Shown here one piece after another: positions 43,791-64,000 of a DNA stretch of 64,000 nucleotides. A program made the position numbers and the translations under genes. Positions within the stretch are counted from its first letter, which is position 1, and each line of letters starts with the position of its first letter. This DNA comes from an uncultured Bacilli bacterium (GTDB lineage: Bacteria; Bacillota_I; Bacilli_A; RF39; UBA660), in the NCBI GenBank assembly GCA_944373145.1, contig CALWAL010000002.1, positions 86,282 to 150,281 on the forward strand. Reading direction: 5' to 3'. The notes below the pieces were generated by a model. The model had not been told where the DNA came from, did no database searches, and saw only the letters and a program-made list of their open reading frames with translations.

Positions 43791-43794
43791 AAAA

Positions 43795-44379: not shown

Positions 44380-44476
44380 TAAATCACTCCTACATATAAA
44401 ATATTATAATGAAAAATTAATAAAGTCAATTTACTATTTACTTGTGAGCATGCTATAATGGTAATAGTAGGAGGGT

Positions 44477-44740: not shown

Positions 44741-44752
44741 TATGCCTTTTTA
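44725..44752. terminator. Bidirectional intrinsic terminator
   Basis: Stem aaggcat/atgcctt with loop cataat, A-run upstream and T-run downstream. Confidence 0.6.
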
Positions 44753-46013: not shown

Positions 46014-46595
46014 TTGAATATAGGTATTAAATATGAACAAAATGTGTTAGTATATAACGAGGGAAGCGGTGGTAGTGTGGATGATACTTTAAAACGTATG
46101 ATAAAAATATATGGTATTAGAGAATATGATTGGATGAATTTTAAAATTACGCGTGATAATCCCTTAACTTATCACCATATAAAAAAGGAGGAACACGGAG
46201 GCAAAAGGACTATTGCTAATGGCGCTCCGTTGACTAAATTAGCGCACGTTTATATTCATCAAATAGAGCGTGATGATCAAAGGAATTTTGTTTATTTAAG
46301 TAAACTACTTCAAAAAATTAATAATGGAAAAAATCCTCCTACAAAAAAACAATTACAAGCCATTAATGCAGTTTTAAAAAATTATGAGAGTAAAAATGAT
46401 AATGTTTTAAGAAGAAGAATTTTATCTTTAAATTTGAATTATTATGCTTTATCAATCACAGGAGTAAAGGATATATATAGTCCTACTAATGTGAGAATGG
46501 TTATGCAGGCAGGAATTAATCCTAGGAGTTGGTTAGAAAATAGCTCAACGAATGATAAAAAAGTTAAAAAAAAGAAAAAACGAAAGAAAAAGTAA
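46014..46595 (+). CDS. Standalone HNH endonuclease-domain protein with a poly-Lys C-terminal tail (start codon uncertain)
   Basis: HNH core …LTYHHIKKEEHGG…NGAPL…HVYIHQ; C-terminus KKVKKKKKRKKK; own terminator downstream (46598-46626). Confidence 0.65.
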   Translation: MNIGIKYEQNVLVYNEGSGGSVDDTLKRMIKIYGIREYDWMNFKITRDNPLTYHHIKKEEHGGKRTIANGAPLTKLAHVYIHQIERDDQRNFVYLSKLLQKINNGKNPPTKKQLQAINAVLKNYESKNDNVLRRRILSLNLNYYALSITGVKDIYSPTNVRMVMQAGINPRSWLENSSTNDKKVKKKKKRKKK

Positions 46596-46764
46596 AAAAG
46601 TGTTGATTTTTCGGCACTTTTTTAGTATACTTTTGTATGTGTGGCATGCAAAGATGTGTGAGGTTGCCGATACACCAGGTTAAGTTGTAAGACAAATAAG
46701 CTTAAGAATCGGGTTTTTACACGGAGCAAGTCTATACAAGATATAGGCGAAGGGAGGACATAAA
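46596..46764 (+). promoter_or_regulatory. S10 operon leader region (terminator of the upstream gene plus the 5' UTR of rpsJ)
   Basis: ~170-nt untranslated region between the HNH gene and rpsJ containing a hairpin with T-run at 46598-46626 and the RBS gaagggagg. Confidence 0.5.
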
Positions 46765-47073
46765 ATGTCAAAAGTTAAGATTCGTATCAAATTAAAAGCT
46801 TTCGAACATAAAAATTTAGACAAAGCTTGTGCGAAAATCGTTGAAACTGTAAAGAGAAACGGTGGAGAAGTTAGTGGGCCAATTCCACTTCCAACAGAAG
46901 TTGAAAAAATCACTATCTTAAGAGCTGTTCACAAAGACAAAGATTCACGTGAGCAATTTGAAAAAAGAACACACAAAAGACTTATTGATATTATTAATCC
47001 GACAAAGGAAACTATTGAGGCATTAACTCATTTAGAGGTACCAAGCGGCGTTAATATCAAAATTATTAAATAA
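46765..47073 (+). CDS. rpsJ: 30S ribosomal protein S10
   Basis: [19 protein letters not shown]… S10 signature. Confidence 0.95.
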
Positions 47074-47087
47074 TAGGAGGAAAGTAT

Positions 47088-47825
47088 ATGAAAGGAATCT
47101 TAGGTCGTAAAATTGGAATGACTCAAGTATTTACTGAATCTGGAAAATTGATTCCTGTAACTGTTGTTGAAGTTGAACCAAATGTAGTAACACAAATTAA
47201 AACTAAAGAAAACGATGGTTACGAAGCTATTCAATTGGGATTCGATACAAAGAGAGAAAAGTTAGCGACTAAAGCTTCAGCTGGACATACAGCTAAGGCT
47301 AATACTACACCTAAGCGCTTCTTTAGAGAAATAAAAGGTGTAGATATCAATGAATATACTTTGGGGCAAGAAGTTAAAGTTGATGTTTTTGCACCAGGTG
47401 AAGTAGTTGATGTAACTGGAACTACTAAAGGAAAAGGGTTCCAAGGTGTTATTAAGAGACATGGACAATCAAGAGGGCCTATGGGACATGGTTCACACTA
47501 TCATAGAAGACCAGGTTCAATGGGTACTATGAGACCAATGCGCGTTTTTAAGGGTAAAAAATTACCAGGACATATGGGTACACTTACAGTTACAATTCAA
47601 AATCTTGAGATTGTTGCTGTAGATTTAGAAAACAATGTAATATTGATAAAAGGTAATGTTCCTGGACCTAAAAAAGGTTTAGTTGTTATTAAGAGTGCTG
47701 TAAAAAACTTGGGAAAAGTTAATGAAACAGAAGGCTTAGTAAACTATGCACCAAAAACTGCAGAGGTTGTTGTTGAACCTACAACTGAAGAAGTTGTAGA
47801 AGAGTCTACTACAGAAGAAAAATAG
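47088..47825 (+). CDS. rplC: 50S ribosomal protein L3 (with a T/E-rich C-terminal extension)
   Basis: [16 protein letters not shown]3 N-terminus; ~35-aa acidic C-terminal extension. Confidence 0.95.
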
Positions 47826-47843
47826 TAGGGAGGATACAAACTT

Positions 47844-48470
47844 ATGAAGAAAATGGATGTATTAAACATACAAGGTAAAAAGGTTAAGGATATTACATTA
47901 AATGAATCAGTATTTGGTGTTGAACCAAATGATGTTGTTATCTATGATGCAATTCGTTTAGCAACTGCAAATGCTAGACAAGGTACACATAGTGTTAAAA
48001 ATCGTGCTGAGGTTTCTGGCGGTGGAAAAAAACCATGGAGACAAAAAGGAACTGGACGTGCTCGTCAAGGATCAACACGTGCTCCACATTGGATTCACGG
48101 TGGTGTAGCGTTTGGTCCACAAACAGATAAAAATTATACATTGAAAATGAACCGTAAAGAAAGAAGATTAGCTTTAAAATCAGCTTTATCTTATAAAGTA
48201 TTAGATAATGAGTTAATCATTTTAGATGAATTGAAATTAAAAAGTGCTAAAACAAAAGAAATGAAGGAAATTTTAGCAAATTTAAATATCGACAGAAATA
48301 TTTTAGTTGTTGTTGATGAATTAGATGATAATTTAATTTTAGCAGCTAGAAATTTAGAAAATGTTTTATTATTACAAGCTGATGAAATCAATACAATGGA
48401 TATCATTTCAGCTAACGTATTAGTAGCAACAGAAGCTGCAATTAAATCAGTAGAGGAGGCTTTAGCATAA
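47844..48470 (+). CDS. rplD: 50S ribosomal protein L4
   Basis: Position in the S10 operon; L4 conserved blocks (…[20 protein letters not shown]…). Confidence 0.95.
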
Positions 48471-48751
48471 TGAATAATTATAGAGATATTATTAAAGAGC
48501 CAATCATTACTGAAAAAACTGCTAATTTAGCACAAGGAAAAAACACTATCGTGTTTAGCGTTGATCCAAAAGCTAATAAAACACAAATTAAACAGGCAGT
48601 TGAAAAAGTATTCGATGTTAAAGTTGAAAGCGTTAATACCATTAATGCTACAACTAAGAAAAAAAGAGTTGGTCGCTACACTGGTAGAACTAACAAGAGA
48701 AAAAAAGCTATTGTTAAATTAGCTGAAGGTAGTTCAATTGAACTAAACTAG
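48470..48751 (+). CDS. rplW: 50S ribosomal protein L23
   Basis: Operon position; …[10 protein letters not shown]…VFSVD… L23 signature. Confidence 0.93.
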
Positions 48752-48771
48752 TCTAAAGGAGGATTATACGT

Positions 48772-49605
48772 ATGGCAATCAAAAGTTATAGGTCAACAAC
48801 TAATGGTAGACGTGGTATGACTACTTTAGATAATAGTGAATTAACTAAAGTACAACCAGAAAAATCATTGGTAGTTACAAAAAAGAAAAATGGCGGTCGT
48901 AATAATCAAGGTAGAATTACTGTTAGACACCAAGGTGGTGGTGAAAAGAGAAAATACCGTGTTATCGATTTTAAAAGAGATAAAGATGGTGTTCCAGGAA
49001 CAGTAGCATCTATCGAATACGATCCAAATAGAAGTTCAAATATTGCTCTTATTAATTATGTCGATGGAGAAAAAAGATATATTATTGCTCCAAAAGGATT
49101 AAAAGTAGGAGACAAAGTTGAAAGTGGTGAAAAGGCTGATATTAAAGTTGGTAATTGTTTACCTCTTGAAAATATCCCAGAAGGTACTTTTGTTCACAAT
49201 GTTGAGTTAAAAGCAGGTAAAGGTGGACAATTAGCTCGTTCTGCAGGTTCTTCAGTTCAAATTTTAGGACGTGAAGGAAAATATACATTACTTCGTTTAA
49301 CTAGCGGTGAAGTTCGTAAAGTATTAAGTACTTGTCGTGCAACAGTTGGTGAAGTTGGAAATGAAGATCATGAATTAGTAAATTTAGGAAAGGCTGGTCG
49401 TAAGAGACATTTAGGTATTAGACCTACTGTTCGTGGATCAGTTATGAACCCTAATGATCACCCACATGGTGGTGGAGAAGGTCGTGCACCAATTGGTCGT
49501 AAAGGACCTGTTACTCCTTGGGGTAAACCAGCACTTGGTTATAAAACTCGTAAAGGTAAAAAACAATCTGATGGCTTAATTGTTCGTCGTCGCAACACTA
49601 AATAA
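48772..49605 (+). CDS. rplB: 50S ribosomal protein L2
   Basis: …[16 protein letters not shown]…, …[14 protein letters not shown]… L2 signature. Confidence 0.95.
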
Positions 49606-49624
49606 TAGGGAAAGGATGGTTTAG

Positions 49625-49897
49625 ATGGCAAGAAGTCTTAAAAAAGGACCTTTCGTAGACGAAAGTTTAATGAAAAAGGTTAGAAAAAATAATGAAGCTG
49701 AGAAAAAAGAAGTTATTAAAACTTGGTCACGCCGTTCAACAATTTTCCCAGAATTTATTGGGAACACATTCGCTGTACATAGCGGTAAAGAATTCGTTCC
49801 AGTTTATGTAACAGAAGATATGGTAGGACATAAATTAGGAGAATTTGTTCCAACACGTAAATTCGGTGGTCATGGCGAAGACAAGAATAAAAAGTAA
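49625..49897 (+). CDS. rpsS: 30S ribosomal protein S19
   Basis: [12 protein letters not shown]… S19 signature. Confidence 0.95.
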
Positions 49898-49922
49898 TTG
49901 AAGTTAAGGAAGGAGGACTAAA

Positions 49923-50258
49923 ATGGAAGCAAAAGCGATAGCAAAAGGAGTTAGAATTCCAGCACGTAAAGCTCGTTTAGTAATAGATTTAATACGTGGC
50001 AAAAACGTATCAGAAGCAGATAAAATTTTAAATAATTTAAATAAAGAAGCTGCAAGATTAATTCGTAAAGTCTTAACTTCAGCTGTAGCAAATGCCGAAA
50101 ATAATTTAAGTTTAGACAAAAACAAATTATATGTTAAAGAGGCATATGTTAATGAAGGTCAAACCTTAAAAAGAATAAAATTTGGTTCTCGTGGACATGT
50201 AGATCCAATTAAGAAGAGAACAAGTCACATTACTGTTGTAGTAAGTGAAAGAAACTAA
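49923..50258 (+). CDS. rplV: 50S ribosomal protein L22
   Basis: [28 protein letters not shown]22 signature. Confidence 0.95.
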
Positions 50259-50276
50259 AGTAAAGGAGGAACACTT

Positions 50277-50954
50277 GTGGGTCAAAAAGTTAGTCCAATA
50301 GGACTTAGAGTTGGTATCAATAAAGGCTGGGAATCTACTTGGTATGCTGAAAAAAAAGATTTTTCTAAATTTTTAGCTAACGACAACAAGATTCGTAAGT
50401 ATTTAGCTAAAAAGTTGAAGGATGCCTCAGTTTCAAGCGTTCTTATTGAAAGAAACGAGAAAAGAACCGAAGTAATTATTAACACTGCAAAACCTGGTGT
50501 GGTAATTGGTCACGGTGGCGATGAAATTGAAAAATTAAAAGCAGAATTATCAAAATTAGTTAATGAAAACGTTCAAATTTCTATTAAAGAAGTTAAGAAC
50601 CCAGATTTAGATGCTGCATTAGTTGCAGAAAATATTGCTCGCCAAATCGAAGGACGTGTGTCTTTCAGAATAGCACAAAAAAGAGCAGTTAGAAATACAA
50701 TGAAAGCTGGAGCGAAAGGAATTAAAACTGCCGTTTCTGGTCGTTTAGGTGGAGCGGATATGGCTCGTACTGAAGGATATATTGAAGGAATTATTCCACT
50801 ACATACTTTAAGAGCAGACATCGATTATGCTCATAAAGAAGCAGATACTGCTTATGGTAAAATTGGTGTTAAAGTATGGATTTGTAAAGGTGAAATACTT
50901 CCTGAAAAAAATAAGGGAGGTAATGTAGATGGCCGTAATACCAAAAAGAACTAA
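50277..50954 (+). CDS. rpsC: 30S ribosomal protein S3 (GTG start)
   Basis: [13 protein letters not shown]…KH domain; RBS aaggagg 7 nt upstream of the GTG. Confidence 0.95.
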
Positions 50955-51357
50955 ATATCGTAATCCTCATCGCCTACCTTATGATGGTAAAGCAAAAGGA
51001 AATACAGAATTACATTTAGGTGAATATGGATTAATGGCAATGGAAGGTGCTTGGATTACTGAACGTCAAATCGAAGCAGCCAGAGTTGCTATGACACGTT
51101 TTACAAAACGTGGTGGTAAAATATATAAAAATATATTTCCACACTTATCATTAACAAAGAAACCACTAGAAACTCGTCAAGGTAAAGGTAAAGGTTCTCA
51201 TGATGCATGGGTAGCAGTAGTTAAGAAAGGCAAAATTATGTTTGAAATGTCAGGAGTTGAAGAATCAGTTGCACGTGAAGCATTCCGTTTAGCTAGTCAT
51301 AAACTTCCTATCAAATGTAAATTTGTTAAGAAAGAAAGCGGTGTAAATAATGACTAA
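50929..51357 (+). CDS. rplP: 50S ribosomal protein L16
   Basis: …PKRTKYR…[12 protein letters not shown]… L16 signature. Confidence 0.95.
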
Positions 51358-51547
51358 TAAAGAAATTAGAGAATTATCAAACGAAGAAATACTTTCAAAA
51401 ATTGAAGAATACAAAGAAGAATTATTTAACTTGCGTTTTTCACAAGCTACAGGATCTTTAGAAAAACCTTCAAGAATAAATGAATTAAGAAAGTTAGTTG
51501 CACGTATGAAAACAATTTTACGTGAAAGAGAACTATCTGGGAAGTAA
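51350..51547 (+). CDS. rpmC: 50S ribosomal protein L29
   Basis: …LRELSNEEL…ELFNLRFQ… L29 signature. Confidence 0.93.
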
Positions 51548-51560
51548 TTAGGAGGGTAAT

Positions 51561-51821
51561 ATGGAAGAAAAAAGAACTCGTGAATTAGTTGGTAAAGTTG
51601 TTAGCGATGCTAATGATAAAACTGTTACTGTACTAGTTGAAACTTATAAAAATGATAGCTTATATGGAAAAAGAGTTAAATATTCTAAAAAATACGCTGC
51701 ACATGACGAAAAAAATGAGGCTAAGAAAGGTGATATCGTTAGAATCACTGAAACTAGACCATTATCTAAAACAAAACATTTCCGTGTTGTGGAAATAGTA
51801 GAGAAAGCAGTTATTCTATAA
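51561..51821 (+). CDS. rpsQ: 30S ribosomal protein S17
   Basis: …[17 protein letters not shown]… S17 signature. Confidence 0.93.
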
Positions 51822-51850
51822 TTGCAAATTGACGAAGGAGGAATTAGTAT

Positions 51851-52219
51851 ATGATTCAACAAGAAAGCCGTTTAAAAGTAGCAGACAATTCAGGTGCAAA
51901 AGAATTATTAGTAATTCGTGTACTTGGTGGATCTAAAGTTAAAACTGGCAATATTGGAGATGTAGTGGTAGCAACTGTTAAAAGCGCAATTCCTAACGGA
52001 ACTGTCAAAAAAGGAAAAGTTGTTAAAGCAGTAATCGTTAGAAGCAAATTCGGTCTAAGAAGAGAAGATGGATCTTATATCAAATTTGATGATAATGCTG
52101 CGGTTATTATTAAAGATGACAAGAGCCCAGTAGGAACTCGTGTATTTGGACCAGTAGCACGTGAATTACGTGACAAAAATTTTATGAAAATTATATCACT
52201 TGCTAAAGAAGTGTTATAG
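51851..52219 (+). CDS. rplN: 50S ribosomal protein L14
   Basis: [18 protein letters not shown]14 signature. Confidence 0.95.
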
Positions 52220-52237
52220 AAGTTTGGAGGAATGAAA

Positions 52238-52546
52238 ATGAACTTTAAAACTGGAGATAAAGTAGTTGTCATTGCTGGTAAAGATAAAGGTAAAGAAGGA
52301 AAAATTTCACACGTATTGCGTGCTGAAAATCGTGTAGTTGTAGAAGGTGTTAACATTATTAAAAAACATGTTAAGCCAAATGGACAAACTGCAGGTAGTA
52401 TCGTTGAAGTGGAAGCTCCAATTCATGCTTCTAATGTAATGATCGTTGATCCGAAGACCGGTAAAAGAACCAGAATTGGACATTCTACAGATAAAAAAGG
52501 CAATAAAATTAGAGTAACTAAAAAATCTAATGAAAGTCTTAATTAA
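52238..52546 (+). CDS. rplX: 50S ribosomal protein L24
   Basis: …[18 protein letters not shown]… KOW motif; second in-frame ATG chosen for RBS spacing (the ORF-track ATG 52232 is also possible). Confidence 0.9.
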
Positions 52547-52563
52547 TTGGAAGGAGGGTATAT

Positions 52564-53103
52564 ATGAACCGCCTAAAAGAAAAATACGAAAAAGAGATCG
52601 TATCTAGTTTAAGAGAAAAATATAATTATAAAAATGTTATGGAAGTACCAAAACTTGATAAAATTGTGGTTAATATTGGATGTGGTGATGCTACAAGCAA
52701 TTCTAAATTATTGGAAGCTGCAATGAAAGACTTGGAAGCAATCACAGGACAAAAACCAGTTGCTACAAAATCAAAAAAATCAATTGCTGGATTTAAATTA
52801 AGACAAGGACAAGCAATTGGTTGTAAAGTAACTCTTCGTGGTGAAAATATGTATAACTTCTTAGATAAATTAATTAGTATTACATTACCACGTGTAAGAG
52901 ACTTTAGAGGTATATCTAATAAATCATTTGATGGTAGAGGAAACTATACATTAGGACTTACAGAACAATTAATATTCTCAGAAATTGAGTATGATAATGT
53001 TGTTAAAGTTCGTGGTATGGACATTGTGTTCGTTACTACTGCAAAGACTAATGCAGAGGCTCTTGATCTCTTAAAAGGTTTCGGTATGCCATTTAAGAAA
53101 TAA
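52564..53103 (+). CDS. rplE: 50S ribosomal protein L5
   Basis: MNRLKEKY…[13 protein letters not shown]5 signature. Confidence 0.95.
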
Positions 53104-53120
53104 TTACTTAGGAGGAAAAT

Positions 53121-53306
53121 ATGGCTAAGAAAAGTATGAAAGTTAAAGCTAGTCGTGAGCCAAAGTTTGAAGTACGTAGATATACTCGTTGTACTCGTTG
53201 TGGAAGACCACATTCTGTATTAAAAAAATACGGTATTTGTAGAATTTGTTTTCGTGAACTAGCTTATAAAGGACAAATCCCAGGAATGAAAAAATCTAGT
53301 TGGTAG
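53121..53306 (+). CDS. rpsZ: 30S ribosomal protein S14 type Z (zinc-binding, 61 aa)
   Basis: [23 protein letters not shown] Cys4 zinc-ribbon; 61 aa. Confidence 0.93.
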
Positions 53307-53320
53307 AAGGAGGGAAGTAT

Positions 53321-53716
53321 ATGGTAACAGATCCAATAGCTGATATGCTTACAAGAATTCGTAATGCAAATCAGATGAGAAATAAAGAAGTAGAAATTCC
53401 TGCTTCAAAAATTAAAGTTGAAATAGCCAGAATCTTAAAAGAAGAAGGATTCATTGTAGACTATAAAACTAAAAAGAACAATGTTCAAGATATTTTAGTT
53501 TTAACGCTAAAATATGGTGAAAATAAAGAGCGTGTTATTACTGGATTAAAGAGAATTTCTAAACCAGGTTTACGTGCTTATGTTAAAGCTGACGAAGTAC
53601 CAAAAGTATTAAACGGTCTAGGTATTGCTATTATATCTACCTCAAAAGGTGTGATGACTGACAAGGATGCTAGACAACAATCACTTGGTGGAGAAGTTTT
53701 AGCTTACATTTGGTAG
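53321..53716 (+). CDS. rpsH: 30S ribosomal protein S8
   Basis: [17 protein letters not shown]8 N-terminus; ATG with RBS gaaggaggg upstream. Confidence 0.93.
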
Positions 53717-53729
53717 AAAGGATGATTTT

Positions 53730-54263
53730 ATGAGTCGTGTTGGAAATAGAATATTAAGTATTCCAGCTGGTGTAACGGTATCTGTAGATGGAAACATCGT
53801 TACAGTAAAAGGTCCTAAAGGAGAACTTTCTACTGAAATTAACAATCATTTAAATGTTGAAATCACAGATACAGAAGTTAAAATAACTAGAGATAATGAT
53901 AATTATAAACAATTTCATGGAACTGCAAACGCTAATATCAGTAATATGATTGTTGGTGTTACAGAAGGATATGAAAAGAAATTAGAATGTGTCGGTGTAG
54001 GTTATCGTTTCCAATTAAAAGGAAGTGATTTAGTAATCTCTGCTGGTCATTCTCATACTTGGACTCCAGAAATTCCAGAAGGAATCACTGTTGAAGTACC
54101 AAGCAATACTGAATTATTAGTAAAAGGTATTGATAAACAATTAGTTGGAGAATTCGCAGCTAATGTTCGAAAAATAAGAAAACCTGAACCATATAAAGGA
54201 AAAGGTATTCGTTATGCTGATGAACACGTTCAACGTAAAGAAGGAAAGAAAGCTTCTAAATAG
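53730..54263 (+). CDS. rplF: 50S ribosomal protein L6
   Basis: MSRVGNRILSIPAGV L6 signature. Confidence 0.95.
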   Translation: MSRVGNRILSIPAGVTVSVDGNIVTVKGPKGELSTEINNHLNVEITDTEVKITRDNDNYKQFHGTANANISNMIVGVTEGYEKKLECVGVGYRFQLKGSDLVISAGHSHTWTPEIPEGITVEVPSNTELLVKGIDKQLVGEFAANVRKIRKPEPYKGKGIRYADEHVQRKEGKKASK

Positions 54264-54281
54264 TAGAAAAGGAGAGAAACT

Positions 54282-54644
54282 ATGATAAAAAAAGTAGCTC
54301 GTAATGAAGCACGTCAAGCAAGACATAGTCGTGTTAGAGCAAAAGTATCAGGTACAGCTAGTGTACCTAGATTAAATGTTTTTAGATCAAATAGTAATAT
54401 TTTTGCACAAATTATTGATGATGAAAAAGCTGTTACTTTAGTTAGTGCCTCTTCTATTGATAAAGAGTTAAAGCTTGAAAATGGTAGTAACGTTGAAGCA
54501 GCAACTAAAGTAGGAGAATTATTAGCTAAAAGAGCTAAAGAAGCAAAAATAACAAAAGTAGTTTTCGATAGAGGTGGATACCAATATCATGGACGTGTAA
54601 AAGCATTAGCAGATGCTGCACGTGAAAACGGACTAGAATTCTAA
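54282..54644 (+). CDS. rplR: 50S ribosomal protein L18
   Basis: …[12 protein letters not shown]…PRLNVFRSN… L18 signature. Confidence 0.95.
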
Positions 54645-54654
54645 AAGGAGGGTA

Positions 54655-55263
54655 ATGATGGAACAAGAAATCGCAAAAGTTGAAGAAGTTAAAACAACTG
54701 AAAAAGTTGAATCAACTGGTAAGAATAGCAGAAGAGATTCTCGTAAGTCTGATAGAAAACCAAGAGAACCAAGAGCTAAACAACCAAAACTTTATGAAGA
54801 AGAAGTAATTTCTATCGGTCGTGTTACTAAAGTTACGAAAGGTGGACGTCATTTCCGTTTTTCTGCCGTTGTTGTAGTTGGAGATAGAAAAGGTAAAGTT
54901 GGTCTTGGAACTGGTAAGGCTAATGAAGTACCTGATGCTATCAAGAAAGCTAGTCAAGCTGCTGCTAAAAATGTAGTTAAAGTTGCTATTGTTGATGATA
55001 GAACTATACCACATGAAGCAATCGGTGTAGAAGGAGCTAGTAAAGTTATGTTAAGACCTGCTGCTAAAGGTACAGGAGTTAAAGCTGGTGGTCCAGTTCG
55101 TTCTGTACTAGAAATGGCAGGGGTTAAAGATATTTTATCTAAATCATTAGGTTCAAGTACAAAAATTAATATGGCATATGCAACCCTTAATGCTTTAAAA
55201 TCACAAAAGACAATAGAAGAAGTTGCAAGACTTCGTGGTAAGAAAGTTGAGGATTTGATGTAA
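54655..55263 (+). CDS. rpsE: 30S ribosomal protein S5 (N-terminal K/R/E-rich extension)
   Basis: …[24 protein letters not shown]… S5 dsRBD-like domain signature. Confidence 0.95.
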
Positions 55264-55706
55264 TGAAACTATATGCTATTAATCAACCTGAAGGCGCTGT
55301 TAAGAGCCGTAAAAGAGTAGGACGTGGAGTTGCTACTGGTAACGGTAAAACAAGCGGTAGAGGACATAAGGGACAAAATGCTAGAAGTGGTGGAGGAGTA
55401 AGACCTGGATTTGAAGGTGGACAATTACCTTTATTCAGACGTTTACCAAAAAGAGGTTTTTCAAATGCACCATTTAAAGTTGAATATGCAACAATTAATT
55501 TAAGTGATTTAGAAAAATTTGAAGATGGAGCTGTAGTAACTCCAGAATTATTGAAAGAGATGGGAATTGTTAAGAAGCAATTATCTGGAATTAAAGTGTT
55601 GGGTAATGGTGAATTAACTAAAAAGTTAACAGTTAAAGCTTCTAAATTCTCAAAGACTGCTATAGAAAAAATAGAAAAAATAGGTGGAAAAGCTGAGGTG
55701 ATTTAA
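55263..55706 (+). CDS. rplO: 50S ribosomal protein L15
   Basis: …[19 protein letters not shown]… L15 signature; start overlaps the rpsE stop (tAATGa); no L30 gene between. Confidence 0.95.
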
Positions 55707-55707
55707 T

Positions 55708-56964
55708 ATGTTTGCAACTATTAAGCAAATATTTAATCCTAAAAATAAAGATATTCAAAAGAAAATCTTATTTACTTTTGCTGCCTTATTTATCTTTAAG
55801 TTAGGAACAACTATTCCTGTACCTGGTGTTGAAATGAGTACGGAAGGGTTAGGTTTCTTAGAGATTGTTAATGCAATGAGTGGTGGCGCTTTTGAGTCTG
55901 CTTCTATTTTTGCATTAGGTGTTATGCCTTATATTTCAGCCTCAATTATTATTCAACTGTTATCTATGGATATTGTTCCATATTTAGCAGATTTAAGTAA
56001 ACAAGGTGGAGTAGGGCGTAACAAATTAAATCAAATAACTAGAGTAACTGGTATTATTTTAGCGTTTATCCAAGGTTATATGTATTCATTCTCTTATATT
56101 AAAAATGGTACATCGCTAGATTATATGACTTACTCATTAGTATTAACTGCAGGTACTGCATTAGTATTATGGATTGGTGATCAAATAACCCAAAAAGGAA
56201 TAGGTAATGGGGTTTCAATGATAATCATGGCTGGTATCATAGCCACTTTGCCATCAATGTTTTCTAGTCTTTGGACGGAATTAATTAATGGTGCAAATGG
56301 ATTTATTGGAATTTTAACATTTATTATGTTTGTTTTAGTGTTTTTAGCTATAATAATCGGTGTTATTTTTGAAGAAAATGCAGAACGCCGTATTCCTATT
56401 CAATATGCTAATAAATCAACAAGTACCTTCGGTAAACAAAATTATATTCCATTCAAATTGAACAGTGCTGGTGTTATGCCTGTTATCTTCGCATCAGCAG
56501 TAGTGTCAATTCCGCAAATCATAGCTTCATTTATAAATAATGCTGATTTTGCGCTTTTTGTAACAAAGTATATTAGCTATACTTCTATAAGTGGGATTAT
56601 CTTATATGTGTTATTAATAATTGGTTTTTCATATTTGTATACATTTATGCAGTTAAAACCAAAAGAATTATCTGAAAAGTTAAATAAAAACGGTGGATAT
56701 ATTCCAGGTGTAAGACCAGGCCACGAAACTGATGAATATATAAGTAAAATATTAAAGAGGATAACAATTGTTGGTGCTTGCTTTTTAGCACTACTTGCTG
56801 CACTTCCAATTCTATTTAGTGAGTTCTCAACACTTCAAACAAGTATTACAATTAGTGGTACTGGATTATTAATTGTTGTTGGTGTTGCCTTAGAAACCTA
56901 TAAACAATTAAAAAGTCAATTGGTTAGTCGAACTTATACTAAAGGAAGAAAAGGGAGAAGATAA
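55708..56964 (+). CDS. secY: Preprotein translocase subunit SecY
   Basis: 10-TM SecY; conserved blocks …LGVMPYISASIIIQLL…, …GGYIPGVRPG…. Confidence 0.95.
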   Translation: MFATIKQIFNPKNKDIQKKILFTFAALFIFKLGTTIPVPGVEMSTEGLGFLEIVNAMSGGAFESASIFALGVMPYISASIIIQLLSMDIVPYLADLSKQGGVGRNKLNQITRVTGIILAFIQGYMYSFSYIKNGTSLDYMTYSLVLTAGTALVLWIGDQITQKGIGNGVSMIIMAGIIATLPSMFSSLWTELINGANGFIGILTFIMFVLVFLAIIIGVIFEENAERRIPIQYANKSTSTFGKQNYIPFKLNSAGVMPVIFASAVVSIPQIIASFINNADFALFVTKYISYTSISGIILYVLLIIGFSYLYTFMQLKPKELSEKLNKNGGYIPGVRPGHETDEYISKILKRITIVGACFLALLAALPILFSEFSTLQTSITISGTGLLIVVGVALETYKQLKSQLVSRTYTKGRKGRR

Positions 56965-56966
56965 AA

Positions 56967-57620
56967 ATGAAAAGTATCATACTTATAGCGCCGCCAGCAG
57001 CGGGAAAAGGAACTGAAGCAGAACAAATTAAAAATCAATATAATATTCCAAGTATATCAACTGGAGATTTATTAAGAGATGTAGTAAAAAGAGATGATGA
57101 ACAAGCTCAAGCAATTCGTGAAATTCTTAATAAAGGAGCTTTGGTTCCTGATGAAATAGTATTAGATCTTTTGAAAGCAAGGATTTCACAGTCTGACTGT
57201 GAAATCGGTTATATATTAGATGGATTTCCACGCAATGTATCTCAAGCAGAAGCTTATGATAAAATCTTAAAAGAGATGAAAAGAGATACAGGTGTAGTAA
57301 TTGTTTTGGATATAGATAAGGAAATCGCAAAATCACGTATAAGTGGTAGGTTTACATGTCCAATGTGTAAAAGAATATATAACACAAATACAGGAGATAT
57401 GAAACCAAAAAAAATAGGACTATGTGATGATTGCAATGTAGAACTTATTCAACGAAGTGATGACAATCCTGAAACTTATGATGATAGATATAACACATAT
57501 TTAGAAAAAACAGAACCTTTGGTAGATTATTATGATGCTCAAGGTATTGTATATCACGTTGATTCTTCTAAAAGCCCTAGTCATACCCACGCTCAAGTAA
57601 TTAAGATTTTAGGAGAGTAA
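56967..57620 (+). CDS. adk: Adenylate kinase (zinc-finger LID)
   Basis: P-loop GAPGAGKGT-like (APPAAGKGTE), LID CPMCKR…CDDC. Confidence 0.95.
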   Translation: MKSIILIAPPAAGKGTEAEQIKNQYNIPSISTGDLLRDVVKRDDEQAQAIREILNKGALVPDEIVLDLLKARISQSDCEIGYILDGFPRNVSQAEAYDKILKEMKRDTGVVIVLDIDKEIAKSRISGRFTCPMCKRIYNTNTGDMKPKKIGLCDDCNVELIQRSDDNPETYDDRYNTYLEKTEPLVDYYDAQGIVYHVDSSKSPSHTHAQVIKILGE

Positions 57621-57621
57621 T

Positions 57622-58368
57622 TTGATTAGTATTAAATCTCCTAGAGAAATAGAGTTAATGGTCGTAGCTGGTGAAATAGTTGGCGATACACATAAATATT
57701 TAAAGCCATATCTTAAGCCGGGAATTACAACGCAAGAGATAGACTCACTAGCTCGCGATTATATTATAAGCCGCGGCGCGACACCGTCATGCTACAATTA
57801 TGACGGATATCCAGCTAATATATGTATATCAATTAACGAAGAAGTTGTACACGGAATTGCTAGTAAGCGTAAGTTAAAAGATGGCGATATTGTAACATTA
57901 GATATTTGTGCTTGCTATAAGGGATATCATGGCGATTCGGCTTGGAGTTATGCCGTAGGTAATGTATCAAAAGATAAGAAATATCTTTTGGAACATACAG
58001 AAAAAGCATTATATGAAGGTTTGAGCGTAATAAAAGAGGGAACCAGAGTTGGTGATATTGGGTATGCAGTGGAAAAGTATGCAACTGACCATGATTTAGG
58101 CGTTGTTAAAGAACTAGTAGGTCATGGTGTAGGTAGCCATCTTCATGAAGATCCAGAAGTACCTAACTATGGTAAAAAAGGAACCGGTCCTGTTTTAAAA
58201 GCTGGGATGGTTATTGCTGTAGAACCAATGCTTAATTTAGGAACAGCAGATGTCTATTTATTAGACGATGATTGGACAGTAGTTACTGCAGACGGTTGTC
58301 CATCTGCTCACTTTGAACATACGATATTAGTTACGAAAGACGGTTATACAATATTGACGAAGAGGTGA
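57622..58368 (+). CDS. map: Methionine aminopeptidase type I (TTG start)
   Basis: Metal ligands in …[15 protein letters not shown]…, …[10 protein letters not shown]…, …VEPM… blocks. Confidence 0.93.
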
Positions 58369-58372
58369 TAAA

Positions 58373-58588
58373 ATGGCTAAGCAAGACGTTATAGAAGTTG
58401 AAGGTAAAGTGCTTGAGGTTTTACCAGGTTATTATTTTAAGGTAGAACTAGCAAATAAACATGTTATTACGGCGCATGTATCAGGTAAAATGCGAATGAA
58501 CATGATTCGTATTTTAGCTGGAGATACAGTAATGGTTGAGTTGTCAACATACGATTTATCACATGGTCGCATAACATACCGAAAGTAG
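58373..58588 (+). CDS. infA: Translation initiation factor IF-1
   Basis: [15 protein letters not shown]…S1-like; 71 aa. Confidence 0.95.
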
Positions 58589-58598
58589 GAGGGATTTT

Positions 58599-58712
58599 AT
58601 GAAAGTTAGAGCATCAGTTAAAAAAATGTGTGAAAAATGCAAAGTTATTAGACGAAAAGGTAAAGTTAGGGTTGTTTGTACTAATCCTAAGCATAAACAA
58701 AGACAAGGTTAA
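58599..58712 (+). CDS. rpmJ: 50S ribosomal protein L36
   Basis: [37 protein letters not shown] (37 aa) with RBS ggaggg; below the ORF-track size cut-off. Confidence 0.93.
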
Positions 58713-58727
58713 TATAGGAGGTGTTTT

Positions 58728-59093
58728 ATGGCACGTATTAAAGGTGTAGATATACCAAATAATAAAAGAATTGAGATAGCATTAACTTATATTTATGGTA
58801 TTGGTAGAAGCTTATCTAATAAAATTTTAGATAGCGTTAACGTTGATAAAGATAAAAGAGCTGGAGATTTATCAAATGATGAATTAAATCTTATTCGTGA
58901 TGAAGTTAACAAATATACGACTGAAGGAGATTTACGTCGTGAAGTTAATATGAACATCAAAACTAAAATGGAAATTAATTCTTATCAAGGAACTCGTCAT
59001 AAAAAAGGCTTACCAGTAAGAGGTCAAAGAACAAATAGAAATGCTCGCACTCGTAAAGGTAAAGGAAAAGTAGTTGCTAATAAGAAAAAATAG
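58728..59093 (+). CDS. rpsM: 30S ribosomal protein S13
   Basis: [15 protein letters not shown]13 signature. Confidence 0.95.
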
Positions 59094-59117
59094 TTGTAAC
59101 TAAAGGAGGTTATAAAA

Positions 59118-59501
59118 ATGGCGTATAAAGCAAGAAAAAGAAAAGTTAAAAAGTCTGTACCAGAAGGTAGAGCTTATATCCATTCAACATTCAATAATAC
59201 TATTGTTACGATCACAGATGCTGATGGTAATGCAATTAGTTGGGCTTCAGCAGGTACTTTAGGTTTTAAAGGATCTAAGAAGTCAACTCCATTCGCTGCT
59301 GGTATGTCAGCAGAAGCAACTGGAAAAGCAGCTTATGACATGGGAATGAGAAAAGTTGAAGTATATGTTAAAGGTTTAGGATCAGGAAGAGAAACAGCTA
59401 TTCGTTCACTTCAAACAGCAGGTTTAGAGATTACATCTATAACTGATGTTACACCTATACCACATAATGGATGTCGTCCACCAAAGCGTCCACGTGGATA
59501 A
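59118..59501 (+). CDS. rpsK: 30S ribosomal protein S11
   Basis: …[13 protein letters not shown]…GN… S11 signature. Confidence 0.95.
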
Positions 59502-59522
59502 TTTGAGAAAAGGAGTGGGGAA

Positions 59523-60473
59523 ATGTTAAATTTTGAGAAGCCAACATATAAAATAACTGAATATGTTGAAAACAAAAATTATGGTAAATTTGAATTAGAA
59601 CCTTTAGAAAGAGGGTTTGGAACCACATTAGGTAATGCTTTGAGAAGAATTATGTTATCAAGTATGCCTGGTAGTGCAATTGTTGCTGTCAAAATTGATG
59701 GTGTAATGCACGAGTTTCAAACAATTGATGGCGTTGTTGAAGATGTAACGACAATTGTTTTAAATTTAAAGAATGTAGTTGTTAAAAATAATACTCAAGA
59801 AGTAAAAATTGTTAAATTATTTGCTGATAAAGAAGGAGTTGTTACAGCTGCTGATATTGAAACAGATTCCGACGTTGAAATCATTTCTAAAGATCAAGTG
59901 ATTGCTACTCTTGCTAAGGGAGGAAAACTTGATATGGAACTTATGATAGCCAACGGTAGAGGGTATGTTCCATCAAATGAAAACAAATCATTTATTGATA
60001 ACGAGAAAAAAGGGTTCATTCCAATTGATGCGATTTACTCACCTATTGAAAGAGTTAGTTATGAAACGGAAAGCGCACGTGTTGGACAGGATGCCAACTA
60101 TGATAAATTAATAATGGAAGTATTTACAAATGGTTCTCTTCGGCCAGAAGAGGCTATGGCTTTAGCAGCTAAAATCATGATTGAACATTTAAACATTGTA
60201 ACAAATTTAAGTGAAATTGCTGATATTACAGGAATCATGAATGCTAAACAAGAAGATAATAAATTAAAGAAATTAGAAACATCAATTGATGATTTAGATT
60301 TCTCTGTTAGAGCATATAACTGCTTAAAGAGAGCTGGAGTTACTACTTTGGGAGATTTAACTTCTAAATCTGAATTAGAAATGATGAAGATTCGTAATTT
60401 AGGTAAAAAGTCTTTAAAAGAAGTAATCGATAAGATTAAAGAAATGGGACTTAAATTCCGTGATGACGATTAG
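59523..60473 (+). CDS. rpoA: DNA-directed RNA polymerase subunit alpha
   Basis: NTD …[15 protein letters not shown]…; CTD …[15 protein letters not shown]…. Confidence 0.95.
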
Positions 60474-60490
60474 TAGAAGGGAGTTTAGTT

Positions 60491-60847
60491 ATGGCTTATA
60501 GAAAATTAGGACGTACAAATAAACATAGAAGAAGTATGCTTGCTAACTTGACTAAAGCAGTTATTAATAATGAAAGAATTGAAACGACTGAAACAAGAGC
60601 TAAAGAAGTTCGTAAAGCAGTAGATAAAATGATTTCTTATGGTAAAGATGGCTCATTAGTTGCAAGAAGAAAAGCATTAGCATTTTTACATAATGATGTA
60701 GATACTGTTAAAAAAGTATTTGATGATTTAGCACCACGTTACGCTAATCGTAATGGTGGTTATACTAGAATTTTAAAATTAAATGAACGTCGTGGTGACG
60801 ATGCATTAACAGTAATTTTAGAATTAGTTGAAGGAGATGCCCAATAA
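60491..60847 (+). CDS. rplQ: 50S ribosomal protein L17
   Basis: MAYRKLGR…HRRSML.NL L17 signature. Confidence 0.95.
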
Positions 60848-60861
60848 GCATCTCTTTTTTT
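60833..60861 (+). terminator. Intrinsic terminator ending the alpha/rplQ operon
   Basis: Perfect 7-bp stem gagatgc/gcatctc, followed by T7; the rplQ stop codon lies in the loop. Confidence 0.7.
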
Positions 60862-60892
60862 CCCCTATTTTTGATGTTTTTTTGCATATTTG

Positions 60893-60901
60893 TGTTATAA
60901 T
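60893..60901 (+). promoter_or_regulatory. Extended -10 promoter element (TGtTATAAT) upstream of the LbH-acetyltransferase/agr-like gene block
   Basis: tgttataat 16 nt upstream of the ATG at 60917; weak -35 candidates (ttgatg / ttgcat) at non-ideal spacing. Confidence 0.4.
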
Positions 60902-60916
60902 TGTTAAGGTGATAAT

Positions 60917-61510
60917 ATGTATAGCATAATTGATGAAAAAACAACTTATATTGATGATGAAGTTCAAATTGATGATGGTTGTATTATCTATCCAAATACA
61001 ACAATTGTTGGAAAAACTATAATAGGCTCAAACACAATTATTTATCCAAGTACATTTATAAAAGACTCTATTATTGGATCTGATAATATTATATATACTT
61101 CTTATATAATAGAAAGTCATATAGGTAATAAAAATAATATAGGTCCATATGCTCATATAAGGCCAGGAAATATAATAGGTAATGAAAATAGAATAGGCTC
61201 TTTTGTTGAAATAAAAAATAGTAAACTTACCAATAGCGTAAAAATACCTCATTTAAGCTATGTAGGTGATACAACTATTAAAGATTGTGTAAATGTAGGT
61301 GCAGGTGTAAAAATTGCTAATTATGATGGAAAAAATAAGAATAATACATATATAGAGGAAGGTACTTTTATAGGATGCAATTCTGTATTAGTAGCTCCAG
61401 TTGTATTACATAAAAATAGTTTTATAGCTGCAGGATCAACAATTACTAAAGATGTACCGCAAGGTGCCCTAGCAATCGCAAGAGAGAGGCAAATTAATAA
61501 AGAAAGATAA
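60917..61510 (+). CDS. Standalone left-handed beta-helix acetyltransferase equivalent to the GlmU C-terminal (GlcN-1-P N-acetyltransferase) domain
   Basis: Hexapeptide repeats; blocks GPYAHIRPGN, GSFVEIKNSKL, HLSYVGD, NVGAGVKIANYDGKNK, LVAPV, GALAIARERQINKE parallel the GlmU acetyltransferase domain; no uridyltransferase domain. Confidence 0.75.
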   Translation: MYSIIDEKTTYIDDEVQIDDGCIIYPNTTIVGKTIIGSNTIIYPSTFIKDSIIGSDNIIYTSYIIESHIGNKNNIGPYAHIRPGNIIGNENRIGSFVEIKNSKLTNSVKIPHLSYVGDTTIKDCVNVGAGVKIANYDGKNKNNTYIEEGTFIGCNSVLVAPVVLHKNSFIAAGSTITKDVPQGALAIARERQINKER

Positions 61511-61549
61511 TTTGCTTTTTTATTATATTAAAAGAGTAGGGAGGAAAAA

Positions 61550-62245
61550 ATGAATATAGTTATTTGTGAAGATGATAGTGGTTGTAGAAAAGCAGAAATT
61601 AAAATTGTTGATGAATATATGAAAGAAAATAATATTGAGTATAAAATATTTGAATATGATGATTATAATCAACAATTTAAAAATATTATGAAAAGTAAGT
61701 GTAAGAAAATTTATATTCTTGATATTGAAACACCATCAGCATCAGGGATAGATATAGCTCGTGATATTAGAAAGTATGATAGAGACAGTATCATAATATT
61801 TGTGACAGGACATGATGAGTATGGAAAATTAGTTTTAAAGAGAAATATTATGTGTTTATCTTTTATTAATAAATTTGAAGATTTAAAATTTGATTTACGT
61901 AATTCTTTGAAAGATGCTTGTTACTACTTAAATTATGATAAAGCAGTGAAGTTAAACGATAGTAATGTTGACTATAATATTAGAATTAGCAAAATTCTTT
62001 ATATAACTAGAGATAGTATTGAAAGAAAAACAGTAATTAAATTGGAAAATGCAGAATATAGGTTAAATTTAAGTTTAAAGAAAGTTAAAGATGCTTTAGG
62101 CGATAATTTTGTTAGGACTCATAAAAGTTGTTATGTTAATAAGAATAGAGTTGAAAAAATTAATTATAAAAATAAACTTATTACATTTGATAATGGTCTT
62201 GAAATAGATTTGTTATCAAACTTGTATAAAAAGGAGATGTGTTAG
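61550..62245 (+). CDS. agrA: AgrA-like response regulator (receiver + LytTR DNA-binding domain)
   Basis: N-terminal ICEDD acidic pocket, phospho-Asp context YILDIETP, C-terminal LytTR (…FVRTHKSCYVNKNRVEKI…). Confidence 0.8.
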   Translation: MNIVICEDDSGCRKAEIKIVDEYMKENNIEYKIFEYDDYNQQFKNIMKSKCKKIYILDIETPSASGIDIARDIRKYDRDSIIIFVTGHDEYGKLVLKRNIMCLSFINKFEDLKFDLRNSLKDACYYLNYDKAVKLNDSNVDYNIRISKILYITRDSIERKTVIKLENAEYRLNLSLKKVKDALGDNFVRTHKSCYVNKNRVEKINYKNKLITFDNGLEIDLLSNLYKKEMC

Positions 62246-63541
62246 ATGAAGTATTGGGCAGCGTTTGCAATTATTAATTTATGTTCAGTTATTAGCATGT
62301 ATTTTATTAGTAACGTTAAAATTAATTTAAAAGATAAAAAAATGTATTGCAGCTATTTATTAAGCACCATATTTTTAATAATAAATTTTGAAATATCATT
62401 AAATGTATTTAAAATAATTATTAATTGTTTATTGTATGTTGTTTTAGCTCGTTATTTAATTAATAAAGATTTAAAAAATTCGTGCATTTTAGGTATAATT
62501 GTAATATTTATTAATATTTTTTCGGAGCTAATTTTTACTTTATTTGCATTGTCTTTTTTGAAACCAGTACTATTTGTAGATAGCGCTCCTTATATTGTAT
62601 TAATTCAAAATACAATTATAGGAATAATTACGGTGTTACTTAGTTTAATGTTTAAAAAATGTAATTTTTATGAAATTGTATTAAAAAAATTTAATAAAAT
62701 AGGTGTTAAACAAATCATAATTTTTTCCTTATTTATGGTGGTTCTATTCAACTTTTTTTTATTTCTTACATGCTTTATTTCTGAGGGTTTATTTAATAAC
62801 CCGATTTTATTAGGCGTAGGGTCTTCTATAAGTCTGTTTAGTGTTGCTTTGGTATATTCTTATTTAACGACTAATAACAAATATGTTGAGGTAATGGAAA
62901 AATATAGTGTTTCTTTAGATAGTATAAAATTATATGAGGATATAATTGAAAATAACCGAGTTAATAATCATGAAGTACGTAATCAATTTTTGATGTTACG
63001 GGGTATGAGTAAAAATAAAAAATTAAATACCTATATAGATTCAATTTTAGACAAAAATATTAGTACTAATGAAGATTTACTAAATAAAGTTATAAAAATA
63101 CCTAGTGGTGGGTTAAGAGGATTAATATATACTAAATTAATTCAAATGCAGGATAATAATATAAATTATGAAATTTATGTTGATAAAAGAGTCAACTCGC
63201 GTAAATTTAGTAAAATAGATTCCAATACTATGATTGATATTTGTAAAATTATTGGGGTTTTTATTGATAATGCTATTGAATGTGTATCTAATTTAAAGAA
63301 AAAAAATATCACTATAGAAATTTATGTTGAAAGAAACGATGTTGTCGTTTGTATTACTAATAACTTTGAAGGAAAAATCAATTTAGATAAATTTGGAACA
63401 GTTAATTATACAACAAAGGGTAATGGCCGTGGATATGGTCTAAGATTAGTTAAAGAAATTTTAAGTCAAAATAACAGGTTAAAAAATTCACGTGAGTTGT
63501 ATGAAGATAATTTTACACAAAATTTAAAAATAAAAATGTAG
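62246..63541 (+). CDS. agrC: AgrC-like (HPK10-type) sensor histidine kinase
   Basis: ~200-aa N-terminal polytopic (6-TM) sensor domain; H-box RVNNHEVRNQ; N-box GVFIDNAIE; G-box GNGRGYGL; ORF starts right after the agrA stop. Confidence 0.8.
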   Translation: MKYWAAFAIINLCSVISMYFISNVKINLKDKKMYCSYLLSTIFLIINFEISLNVFKIIINCLLYVVLARYLINKDLKNSCILGIIVIFINIFSELIFTLFALSFLKPVLFVDSAPYIVLIQNTIIGIITVLLSLMFKKCNFYEIVLKKFNKIGVKQIIIFSLFMVVLFNFFLFLTCFISEGLFNNPILLGVGSSISLFSVALVYSYLTTNNKYVEVMEKYSVSLDSIKLYEDIIENNRVNNHEVRNQFLMLRGMSKNKKLNTYIDSILDKNISTNEDLLNKVIKIPSGGLRGLIYTKLIQMQDNNINYEIYVDKRVNSRKFSKIDSNTMIDICKIIGVFIDNAIECVSNLKKKNITIEIYVERNDVVVCITNNFEGKINLDKFGTVNYTTKGNGRGYGLRLVKEILSQNNRLKNSRELYEDNFTQNLKIKM

Positions 63542-63560
63542 ATATATTTCTACATTTTTT
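63537..63560. terminator. Bidirectional intrinsic terminator between convergent agrC (+) and agrD (-)
   Basis: Stem tgtaga/tctaca with loop tatatt; A-run upstream (aaaaataaaaa) and T6 downstream. Confidence 0.55.
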
Positions 63561-63589
63561 GATTGATTATATGATTAATTTAAAAGTAA

Positions 63590-63715
63590 TTATTTGATTA
63601 ATGATTGAGGACATTTTGGTTCTTCGAACAACATAAACAAGACGCATCCCATTTCAGTTGTATTAGCTACAAATGAACCAACTTTTGCTAATAAATCAAC
63701 AAAAAGCCCTAACAT
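63590..63715 (-). CDS. agrD: AgrD-like autoinducing-peptide precursor (41 aa; not in the ORF track)
   Basis: Minus-strand ORF MLGLFVDLLAKVGSFVANTTEMGCVLFMLFEEPKCPQSLIK with RBS aaaggag 5 nt upstream. It has an amphipathic N-terminal leader, a single central Cys followed by hydrophobic residues, and a C-terminal EEPK acidic-proline recognition motif, as in staphylococcal and clostridial AgrD. It lies immediately downstream of, and overlaps, agrB. Confidence 0.65.
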   Translation of the reverse strand: MLGLFVDLLAKVGSFVANTTEMGCVLFMLFEEPKCPQSLIK

Positions 63716-64000
63716 AACTTCTCCTTTCTACCATATTTATCTATATATTTTAAATAATTATTATATGGCAAATTAAATAATTTATATGTGAATGGGGATA
63801 TAAGTATATTAATTAAAATTAAACTAAACAATAAGGAATTAGCTACTATTTGACTATCAACGAAAAATGAAGTGATTATATATATTGTAGCCACAATAGT
63901 AGCTAGCACCTTATGTTTTTTCCTAATTTTAGGACTGATTATTGGCCTTTTTTCAGTATCGGCAGGGCTATATCTATAAACATGTAAAATTAGTATAATT
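63709..64000 (-). CDS. agrB: AgrB-like membrane endopeptidase, C-terminal part (5' end beyond the window)
   Basis: Frame open from the window edge: …HVYRYSPADTEKRPIISPKIRKKHKVLATIVATIYIITSFF…KLC*. Aligns with the conserved S. aureus AgrB segment [34 protein letters not shown]. Hydrophobic helices. The ORF-track entry 63709-63909 is an internal GTG of this longer frame. Confidence 0.65.
   Translation of the reverse strand, partial: IILILHVYRYSPADTEKRPIISPKIRKKHKVLATIVATIYIITSFFVDSQIVANSLLFSLILINILISPFTYKLFNLPYNNYLKYIDKYGRKEKLC

Follow-up and report, generated by a model that had tools for sequence, protein, structure and literature searches.

The locus described here raises the question of whether a 41-codon open reading frame (ORF) on the minus strand, at 63590..63715 of a 64,000-nucleotide stretch of DNA (hereafter the window), encodes the precursor of an autoinducing peptide (AIP) of the Agr type, and, if so, which part of the precursor would become the signal and which receptor would sense it. 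The DNA comes from an uncultured Bacilli species that is associated with the gut and rich in AT (26-33% GC). An initial annotation regarded the ORF as an unannotated, AgrD-like propeptide that follows an AgrB-like gene, with a single cysteine that could close a five-residue thiolactone ring, CVLFM. Tens of thousands of AgrDs have already been predicted by large-scale mining (PMC12180512, PMC11953309).

The 41-codon ORF and its translation signals

The ORF at 63590..63715 (minus strand) encodes the 41-residue peptide MLGLFVDLLAKVGSFVANTTEMGCVLFMLFEEPKCPQSLIK, exactly as first translated. Its Shine-Dalgarno sequence, AAAGGAG, can be read directly at 63721..63727 on the same strand, within the 3′ end of agrB. 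The spacer from this motif (63727..63721) to the ATG (63715..63713) is 5 nt, and the motif is unchanged at the nucleotide level in three alleles of the locus. The agrB frame ends with K-L-C-TAG at 63709, and the two co-oriented genes overlap by 7 nt. In all these particulars the DNA reads as the initial annotation had described it.

The peptide can be divided into a leader (codons 1-23), a predicted core (codons 24-30) and a follower (codons 31-41). The N-terminal residues 1-18 have a helical hydrophobic moment of 0.40, a value that 0.16% of shuffled sequences reach and that is comparable to the 0.51 of the S. aureus AgrD1 leader; the amphipathic helix previously proposed for this segment is thus borne out. 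The cysteine count had to be corrected, as two cysteines are present, C24 and C35.

The NCBIfam model TIGR04223 (quorum_AgrD) recognizes the peptide with 20.8 bits, against a curated cutoff of 19 (E = 3.2e-4), with residues 2-41 aligned to profile positions 4-38 of 38. By contrast, a Pfam scan of the peptide returned no family up to E = 10, PF05931 included. That is, the comparison with an AgrD model proposed at the outset was negative for the Pfam family that had been named, and positive for its NCBIfam counterpart. The ORF had also been expected to escape standard gene callers; in fact, public metagenome contigs, at least 22 of them, have a called gene for the identical 41-residue product. 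Nor is the word unannotated supported, given these calls in public assemblies and the name 'cyclic lactone autoinducer peptide' that NCBI gives to close family members. PDB sequence searches with AgrB and AgrD as queries gave no match, and an exact DNA pattern scan over JGI metagenome contigs gave 0 matches.

The adjacent agrB, kinase and regulator genes

The C-terminal 96 codons of agrB occupy 63709..64000 on the minus strand, where the gene leaves the window. The fragment 63709..63999 matches the Pfam AgrB family PF04647 (1.9e-09; 37.6 bits, cutoff 23), which confirms the gene as AgrB-like. The remainder was recovered from the public contig L001, which differs from the window by 5 mismatches in 6411 nt, all of them further into the ribosomal-protein operon and none anywhere in the agr locus. 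A disrupted agrB frame had been named as something that would count against the AgrD assignment; in L001 the gene is intact (L001:5381-6007) and encodes a protein of 208 aa that has both His76 and Cys83, seven residues apart. These two residues, together with G74 and P124, are invariant in 31/31 aligned AgrB homologues. In S. aureus AgrB, the catalytic pair is His77/Cys84, which is likewise described as invariant (PMC10482373). In one related contig (L053:5434-6249) AgrB has been called as a protein of 271 aa; because its 65 extra N-terminal residues are found in no homologue, the start was probably mis-called, and the true start is likely MSELVIGK....

On the plus strand, a response regulator and a sensor histidine kinase converge on agrBD. 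The AgrA-like regulator (61550..62245, plus strand, 231 aa) consists of a receiver domain (PF00072), with Asp58 within ILDIE, and a LytTR domain (PF04397); its best NCBIfam match is quorum_RR_AgrA, under the equivalog cutoff. The AgrC-like kinase, of the HPK10 type (62246..63541, plus strand, 431 aa; PF14501, 7e-13, the GHKL_5 ATPase domain usual in such kinases), has hydrophobic segments across residues 3-205, which delimit a polytopic sensor of approximately residues 1-205, and an H-box histidine, His242, in NNHEVRNQF. Against the S. aureus equivalog models, the kinase scored 38.3 bits with the AgrC model NF046015 (cutoff 500) and the regulator 58.9 bits with the AgrA model NF046049 (cutoff 400). 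Judged from their sequences, the two are therefore the same kind of protein as S. aureus AgrC and AgrA, and not orthologous equivalogs.

The gene order is rplQ, a hexapeptide transferase gene, the regulator, the kinase, agrD and agrB (on the other strand), cspA, GH25, hpf and secA, with agrBD (minus strand) convergent with regulator-then-kinase (plus strand). All four agr genes are intact in every contig examined. The transferase, which lies between rplQ and the agr regulator (60917..61510, plus strand), is a hexapeptide-repeat (left-handed beta-helix) protein of 197 aa whose position is kept in all related contigs. Throughout the window (1..64000), where GC content ranges over 26-33%, GC skew is positive and long ORFs lie nearly all on the plus strand. 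The agrBD pair is one of the few minus-strand units, and the lowest GC content of the window, 25.6%, is that of the 60-64 kb block with the agr genes.

A family of AgrD peptides in related bacteria

A scan of a genome collection with AgrB gave homologues from 28 genomes at identities of 28-48%; the species of the window was not among them, and almost all were MAGs of uncultured gut or rumen bacteria that carry the label Bacilli, Tenericutes, Mycoplasmatota or Erysipelotrichaceae. A small ORF lies directly 3′ of agrB in 24 of these 28 distant relatives and ends with (C/S)-x5-6-(D/E)E(P/A)-x-x-P-x-S-L, so that conservation in related genomes, which the initial annotation had suggested examining, speaks for the ORF. 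A profile built from 27 such peptides matches at least 1554 protein clusters. Several of these carry the NCBI name 'MAG: cyclic lactone autoinducer peptide [Bacilli bacterium]', and several profile-matched members have a precomputed PF05931 match, unlike the window peptide. A single-sequence search with AgrD of a collection of 5.8 billion proteins yielded only 3 clusters, owing to the word index; this search missed two of the alleles described below, D and E, which were reached only via the kinase. In the same collection, the exact core CVLFMLF carries no name.

Among the 27 aligned family members, only E32, P36 and L39 (window numbering) are invariant. C24 is invariant in all 41-residue variants, and of 124 family members, 121 have Cys and 3 have Ser at the ring position. 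The number of residues between this position and the DEP motif is five in 112/124 of the peptides and six in the other 12, all of which belong to the 41-residue clade of the window. The relatives L032, L035, L037 and L041 have Ser at the ring position (e.g., GSWIFWWDEP, ASWIGWFDEA), often with DEA for DEP and with M or T for the follower Cys; from their sequences, they are predicted to give lactones, not thiolactones.

The NCBI 'cyclic lactone autoinducer peptide' entries from Bacilli MAGs (TIGR04223) have in common the motif ...A/G-C-x5-DEP(E/K)CPKSLIK. Like the window peptide, they are 37-41 residues long and placed after agrB; in comparison with them, the window peptide falls into a subclade of 41-residue peptides (12/124) marked by the motif E-x-G-C and a core of seven residues. 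Thus, from the TIGR04223 score, the position of the ORF after agrB, the size of the family (at least 1554 clusters), the NCBI names and the amphipathic leader, we conclude by sequence comparison that the window peptide is a member of a large and already recognized AgrD subfamily.

Alleles of the core peptide and of the kinase sensor

At least five agrD alleles are found in the same species with identical synteny. In all of them the leader and follower are conserved and the core is hypervariable: allele A, that of the window and of L001, reads GCVLFMLF-EEPK; allele B (L015), GCVLYFFL-DEPK; allele C (L018), GCLTLFFI-DEPE; allele D (L049, L050), GCIMWIIA-DEPE; and allele E (L051), GCLYFFVL-DEPK. 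All six positions after Cys24 vary, as far as the conserved follower. The other protein products differ little between alleles, with 3-6 of 208 residues changed in AgrB (97-99% identity) and 0-1 of 231 in the regulator (99.6-100% identity). The exception is the kinase. Relative to the window protein, the sensor half of the kinase in the other alleles is 35-41% identical, whereas the C-terminal catalytic half is 84-91% identical.

The hypervariable segment that distinguishes the alleles spans 62246..63666, from approximately codon 17 of agrD to the start codon of the kinase gene, with the whole of the latter gene included. In a sliding comparison of allele A (L001) with allele B (L015), nucleotide identity is 99-100% in the flanks, 97-99% in agrB and about 85% in the 3′ half of agrD. 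In the kinase gene it is 77-94% in the 3′ half and 45-65% in the 5′ half, which encodes the membrane sensor, and it regains 99% exactly at the regulator gene. That AgrB lies outside this variable block fits the invariant leader and follower of its substrate.

Cores and sensors are paired one-to-one, with no exception, in 14 independent contigs. This count covers alleles A (8 contigs), B (3), D (2) and E (1), the contigs of allele C (L018-L020) ending before the kinase. By analogy, the co-variation of core and sensor resembles the ligand-receptor co-diversification of the S. aureus agr groups (PMC12312760, PMC10482373). No other evidence at hand argues as strongly for the 41-residue product as the precursor of the ligand of the adjacent kinase. 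A search with the kinase revealed many more sensor variants (P0016-P0038) with one common catalytic half.

Alleles A (CVLFMLF, L006) and B (CVLYFFL, L017) co-occur in one metagenome sample, ERZ24773527, and therefore two pherotypes coexist in one gut community. In related lineages (L052, L053 and L054), whose RpoA is 97-99.7% identical to that of the window, the synteny and the 41-residue AgrD are kept, at identities of 57-86% for AgrB, 66-83% for the regulator and 48-72% for the kinase. By this measure of sequence divergence, the whole agr locus is evolving far faster than the neighboring housekeeping genes.

Predicted AgrB cut site and size of the macrocycle

The follower provides a register for the AgrB cut. 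E32, P36 and L39 have the same spacing as E34, P38 and L41 of S. aureus AgrD1, and the family HMM aligns 'DEPecPkSL' with S. aureus 'DEVEVPKEL', and the family Cys with C28. Of the S. aureus AgrD sequences in this alignment, only AgrD1 has a numbering borne out by the published account (PMC10482373). In that account, C28 of S. aureus AgrD is the nucleophile and M32 the final ring residue, while E34 and L41 are required for processing (PMC10482373). Because E32/P36/L39 align with E34/P38/L41, the M32|D33 junction of S. aureus corresponds to F30|E31. On this alignment, AgrB would cut after F30, and the ring would be the 7-residue CVLFMLF, i.e., codons C24-F30 (63626..63646, minus strand), rather than CVLFM, a prediction from the follower register and the hypervariable block that we regard as evenly poised. 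The five-residue ring of the initial annotation is therefore not favored, and its match of the EEPK segment to an EEPK of C. perfringens places the tail in the wrong register. Since five residues precede DEP in most family members, a 6-residue ring is predicted for most of the relatives.

AIP rings documented to date have 5, 6 or 9 residues, and none has 7 (PMC12312760, PMC8251862). Rings of six are found in C. acetobutylicum ([CVLVTL]) and R. cellulolyticum (CWFWSY) (PMC12312760, PMC8251862), and a ring of nine in GBAP (PMC12312760). A classical 5-residue ring, CVLFM, or a 6-residue ring, CVLFML, with the other hydrophobic residues belonging to the follower, has a smaller though substantial probability. 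Rings of five are found in most characterized AIPs, and rings of six in a few (PMC12312760); moreover, with C/S+5 before DEP in 112/124 peptides, the extra residue of the window clade could be an addition on the follower side. AgrB might also measure from the Cys instead, in which case the ring would have 5 or 6 residues and the follower would be longer. However, a cut immediately N-terminal to (D/E)31 is the only one that leaves the E, P and L of the follower at their S. aureus spacing, hypervariability between alleles affects each of the six residues that separate Cys24 from the invariant follower, and in S. aureus, too, the conserved follower begins right after the ring. Our preferred prediction is thus the 7-residue CVLFMLF. 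An S-to-N acyl shift has been described for clostridial AIPs, and if the product had no exocyclic tail, rearrangement of its thiolactone could give a homodetic cyclopeptide (PMC8251862).

C35 was considered as the ring cysteine and ruled out: it falls in the follower segment that AgrB would remove, with an invariant residue to either side (E32 and P36), and relatives have M, A or T in its place.

Probable signaling role of the peptide

From knowledge of the family, the following pathway may be proposed. The amphipathic leader (residues 1 to ~18) would hold the peptide at the membrane, where AgrB, through His76/Cys83, would recognize the follower (D/E)-E-P-x-C-P-x-S-L and cut it off. The thiol of Cys24, the putative nucleophile, would then receive the new C-terminus from AgrB, which would close a thiolactone macrocycle, and a second protease would remove the leader. 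The convergent AgrC-like kinase would detect the exported peptide with its polytopic sensor domain and would phosphorylate the LytTR regulator; this regulator would presumably autoinduce agrBD.

Taken together, the HMM score, the gene position, the His/Cys pair of AgrB, the conservation of the family and the co-variation of core and kinase sensor lead us to conclude that the 41-codon ORF is very probably an AgrD propeptide with a signaling role, a degree of confidence that applies to identity and role and is separate from that for ring size. In this respect the central proposal of the initial annotation, an AgrD propeptide beside AgrB that the adjacent AgrC/AgrA-like pair would sense, is fully supported. 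We consider it very unlikely that the AgrB-processed peptide is mainly an interference or antimicrobial molecule, or the locus a decayed remnant, rather than a source of a self-sensing quorum signal. The presence of alleles A and B in one sample would be compatible with interference between strains, and the scans demonstrated no autoinduction promoter. Nevertheless, a decayed remnant is at odds with four genes that are intact in every contig examined, and the strict co-variation of core and kinase sensor is what ligand-receptor co-evolution predicts. Cross-inhibition between groups, as in S. aureus, would add to self-sensing without replacing it (PMC12312760). Lastly, although spurious ORFs of 30-70 aa are numerous in the AT-rich window and the Pfam AgrD model gives no match, a chance, untranslated ORF in intergenic DNA is effectively refuted by conservation, with frame, length and motif kept in all alleles and in 24/28 distant relatives and at least 1554 related clusters, and is further opposed by the TIGR04223 score and by the Shine-Dalgarno sequence and translational coupling to agrB.

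A bacteriocin-type pheromone with a double-glycine leader was also ruled out, as the GG motif is absent and AgrB is present.

Non-coding elements of the locus

A hairpin with A-run and U-run flanks is found at 63532..63559, between the convergent agrD and kinase genes, whose stops are at 63590 and 63541, respectively. It has an 11-bp stem and a folding energy of -10.2 kcal/mol (z = -4.7), matched by 0/200 shuffled sequences; across the alleles the stem is conserved and the loop is variable. This element is likely a bidirectional terminator. A terminator scan missed it because the scan requires 3 G-C pairs, and the hairpin is AT-rich. The last codons of the kinase and its TAG stop (63530..63541) lie within the 5′ (plus-strand) arm.

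An Rfam search of the agr locus produced no match, and hence no RNAIII-like element. In the window as a whole, the only Rfam families at gathering score are an S10-Clostridia leader (46643..46750, plus strand) and an L31-Firmicutes leader (29861..29891, plus strand). A sigma-70 scan, which is uninformative in AT-rich DNA, gave sites no more common than in shuffled sequences. No direct repeats with 6-nt seeds were found upstream of agrB, and the promoter and repeat scans of that region gave no clear autoinduction promoter or validated LytTR site.

Past the window end (~64450-64480), L001:5237-5266 contains the tandem TGCACAAAA-N12-TGCACGAAA, i.e., two copies of TGCAC(A/G)AAA whose centres are 21 bp apart. 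The tandem precedes the agrB start by 115-144 bp and is divergent from cspA. A pattern was derived from it post hoc, out of these same sequences; related contigs have this pattern a single time in each locus, and the 64-kb window does not have it at all. In related lineages the tandem is conserved in part. A period of 21 bp is the periodicity of LytTR tandem sites, and by its sequence we regard the tandem as a candidate binding site for the LytTR (AgrA-like) regulator.

Discussion

By family assignment, all four proteins fit a circuit of the staphylococcal or clostridial agr kind. One of the systems most similar in its components is the agr system of S. aureus. In both, the propeptide consists of an amphipathic leader, a core that contains a Cys, and an acidic follower in which E, P and L stand at +2, +6 and +9; the His and Cys of AgrB are 7 residues apart; the sensor is a polytopic kinase; and the regulator is of the LytTR type. 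The alleles, too, are reminiscent of S. aureus groups I-IV, in which the agrD core and the agrC sensor fall in a hypervariable block and the flanks are conserved (PMC12312760, PMC10482373). The differences concern layout and extent. The locus in the window is not one agrBDCA operon, since agrBD converges on the regulator and kinase genes. Its AgrB is nearly invariant (97-99%), whereas in S. aureus AgrB is within the hypervariable region, and the catalytic half of its kinase is also moderately diverged (84-91%). The predicted ring has 7 residues instead of 5 and the follower 11 instead of 14, and an Rfam search of the locus identified no element resembling RNAIII.

The clostridial AIPs with six-residue rings, those of C. 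acetobutylicum and Ruminiclostridium cellulolyticum (Rc-AIP1), are similar in having a hydrophobic or aromatic ring of more than five residues. In clostridial systems, as here, agrBD and the two-component genes are separate transcription units (PMC12312760, PMC8251862). In contrast to these AIPs, the window clade has one core residue more (C+6), and its host belongs to an uncultured Bacilli lineage, not to Clostridia. The Fsr system of Enterococcus faecalis is likewise of the AgrB/AgrD type, with a macrocycle of more than five residues, the 9-residue ring of GBAP. GBAP is a lactone formed via Ser, as predicted for the relatives L032, L035, L037 and L041 (PMC12312760), while the window peptide has a Cys and a predicted 7-residue ring.

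The AgrD itself adds one more predicted signal to a family that annotation pipelines already recognize. What appears to be undescribed is the multi-allelic series of peptides and sensors that one uncultured gut species combines with an invariant AgrB, as do the co-occurrence of alleles A and B in ERZ24773527 and the predicted 7-residue core. A search of open-access text found no paper on agr in RF39-type bacteria or their lineage, and a text search of the literature for the follower sequences of known AgrDs found no precursor sequences.

In its broadest form, our interpretation is that of a multi-allelic agr system of at least five pherotypes, in which an essentially invariant AgrB would make different 7-residue thiolactones, a ring size not previously described, specificity would reside entirely in core and sensor, and coexisting pherotypes would possibly interfere with one another. 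We advance this interpretation tentatively, as one that falls a little short of an even chance. A 7-residue ring, if true, would extend the known AIP ring sizes of 5, 6 and 9. The alleles constitute a natural series of at least five cores, four of them with a matched sensor and all from the same AgrB. Such a series would be useful for understanding how AgrC sensors discriminate between hydrophobic macrocycles, and how far AgrB tolerates changes in core sequence and ring size. By analogy, these observations suggest that strain-level signaling interference, known from skin staphylococci, may operate among uncultured gut Bacilli as well.
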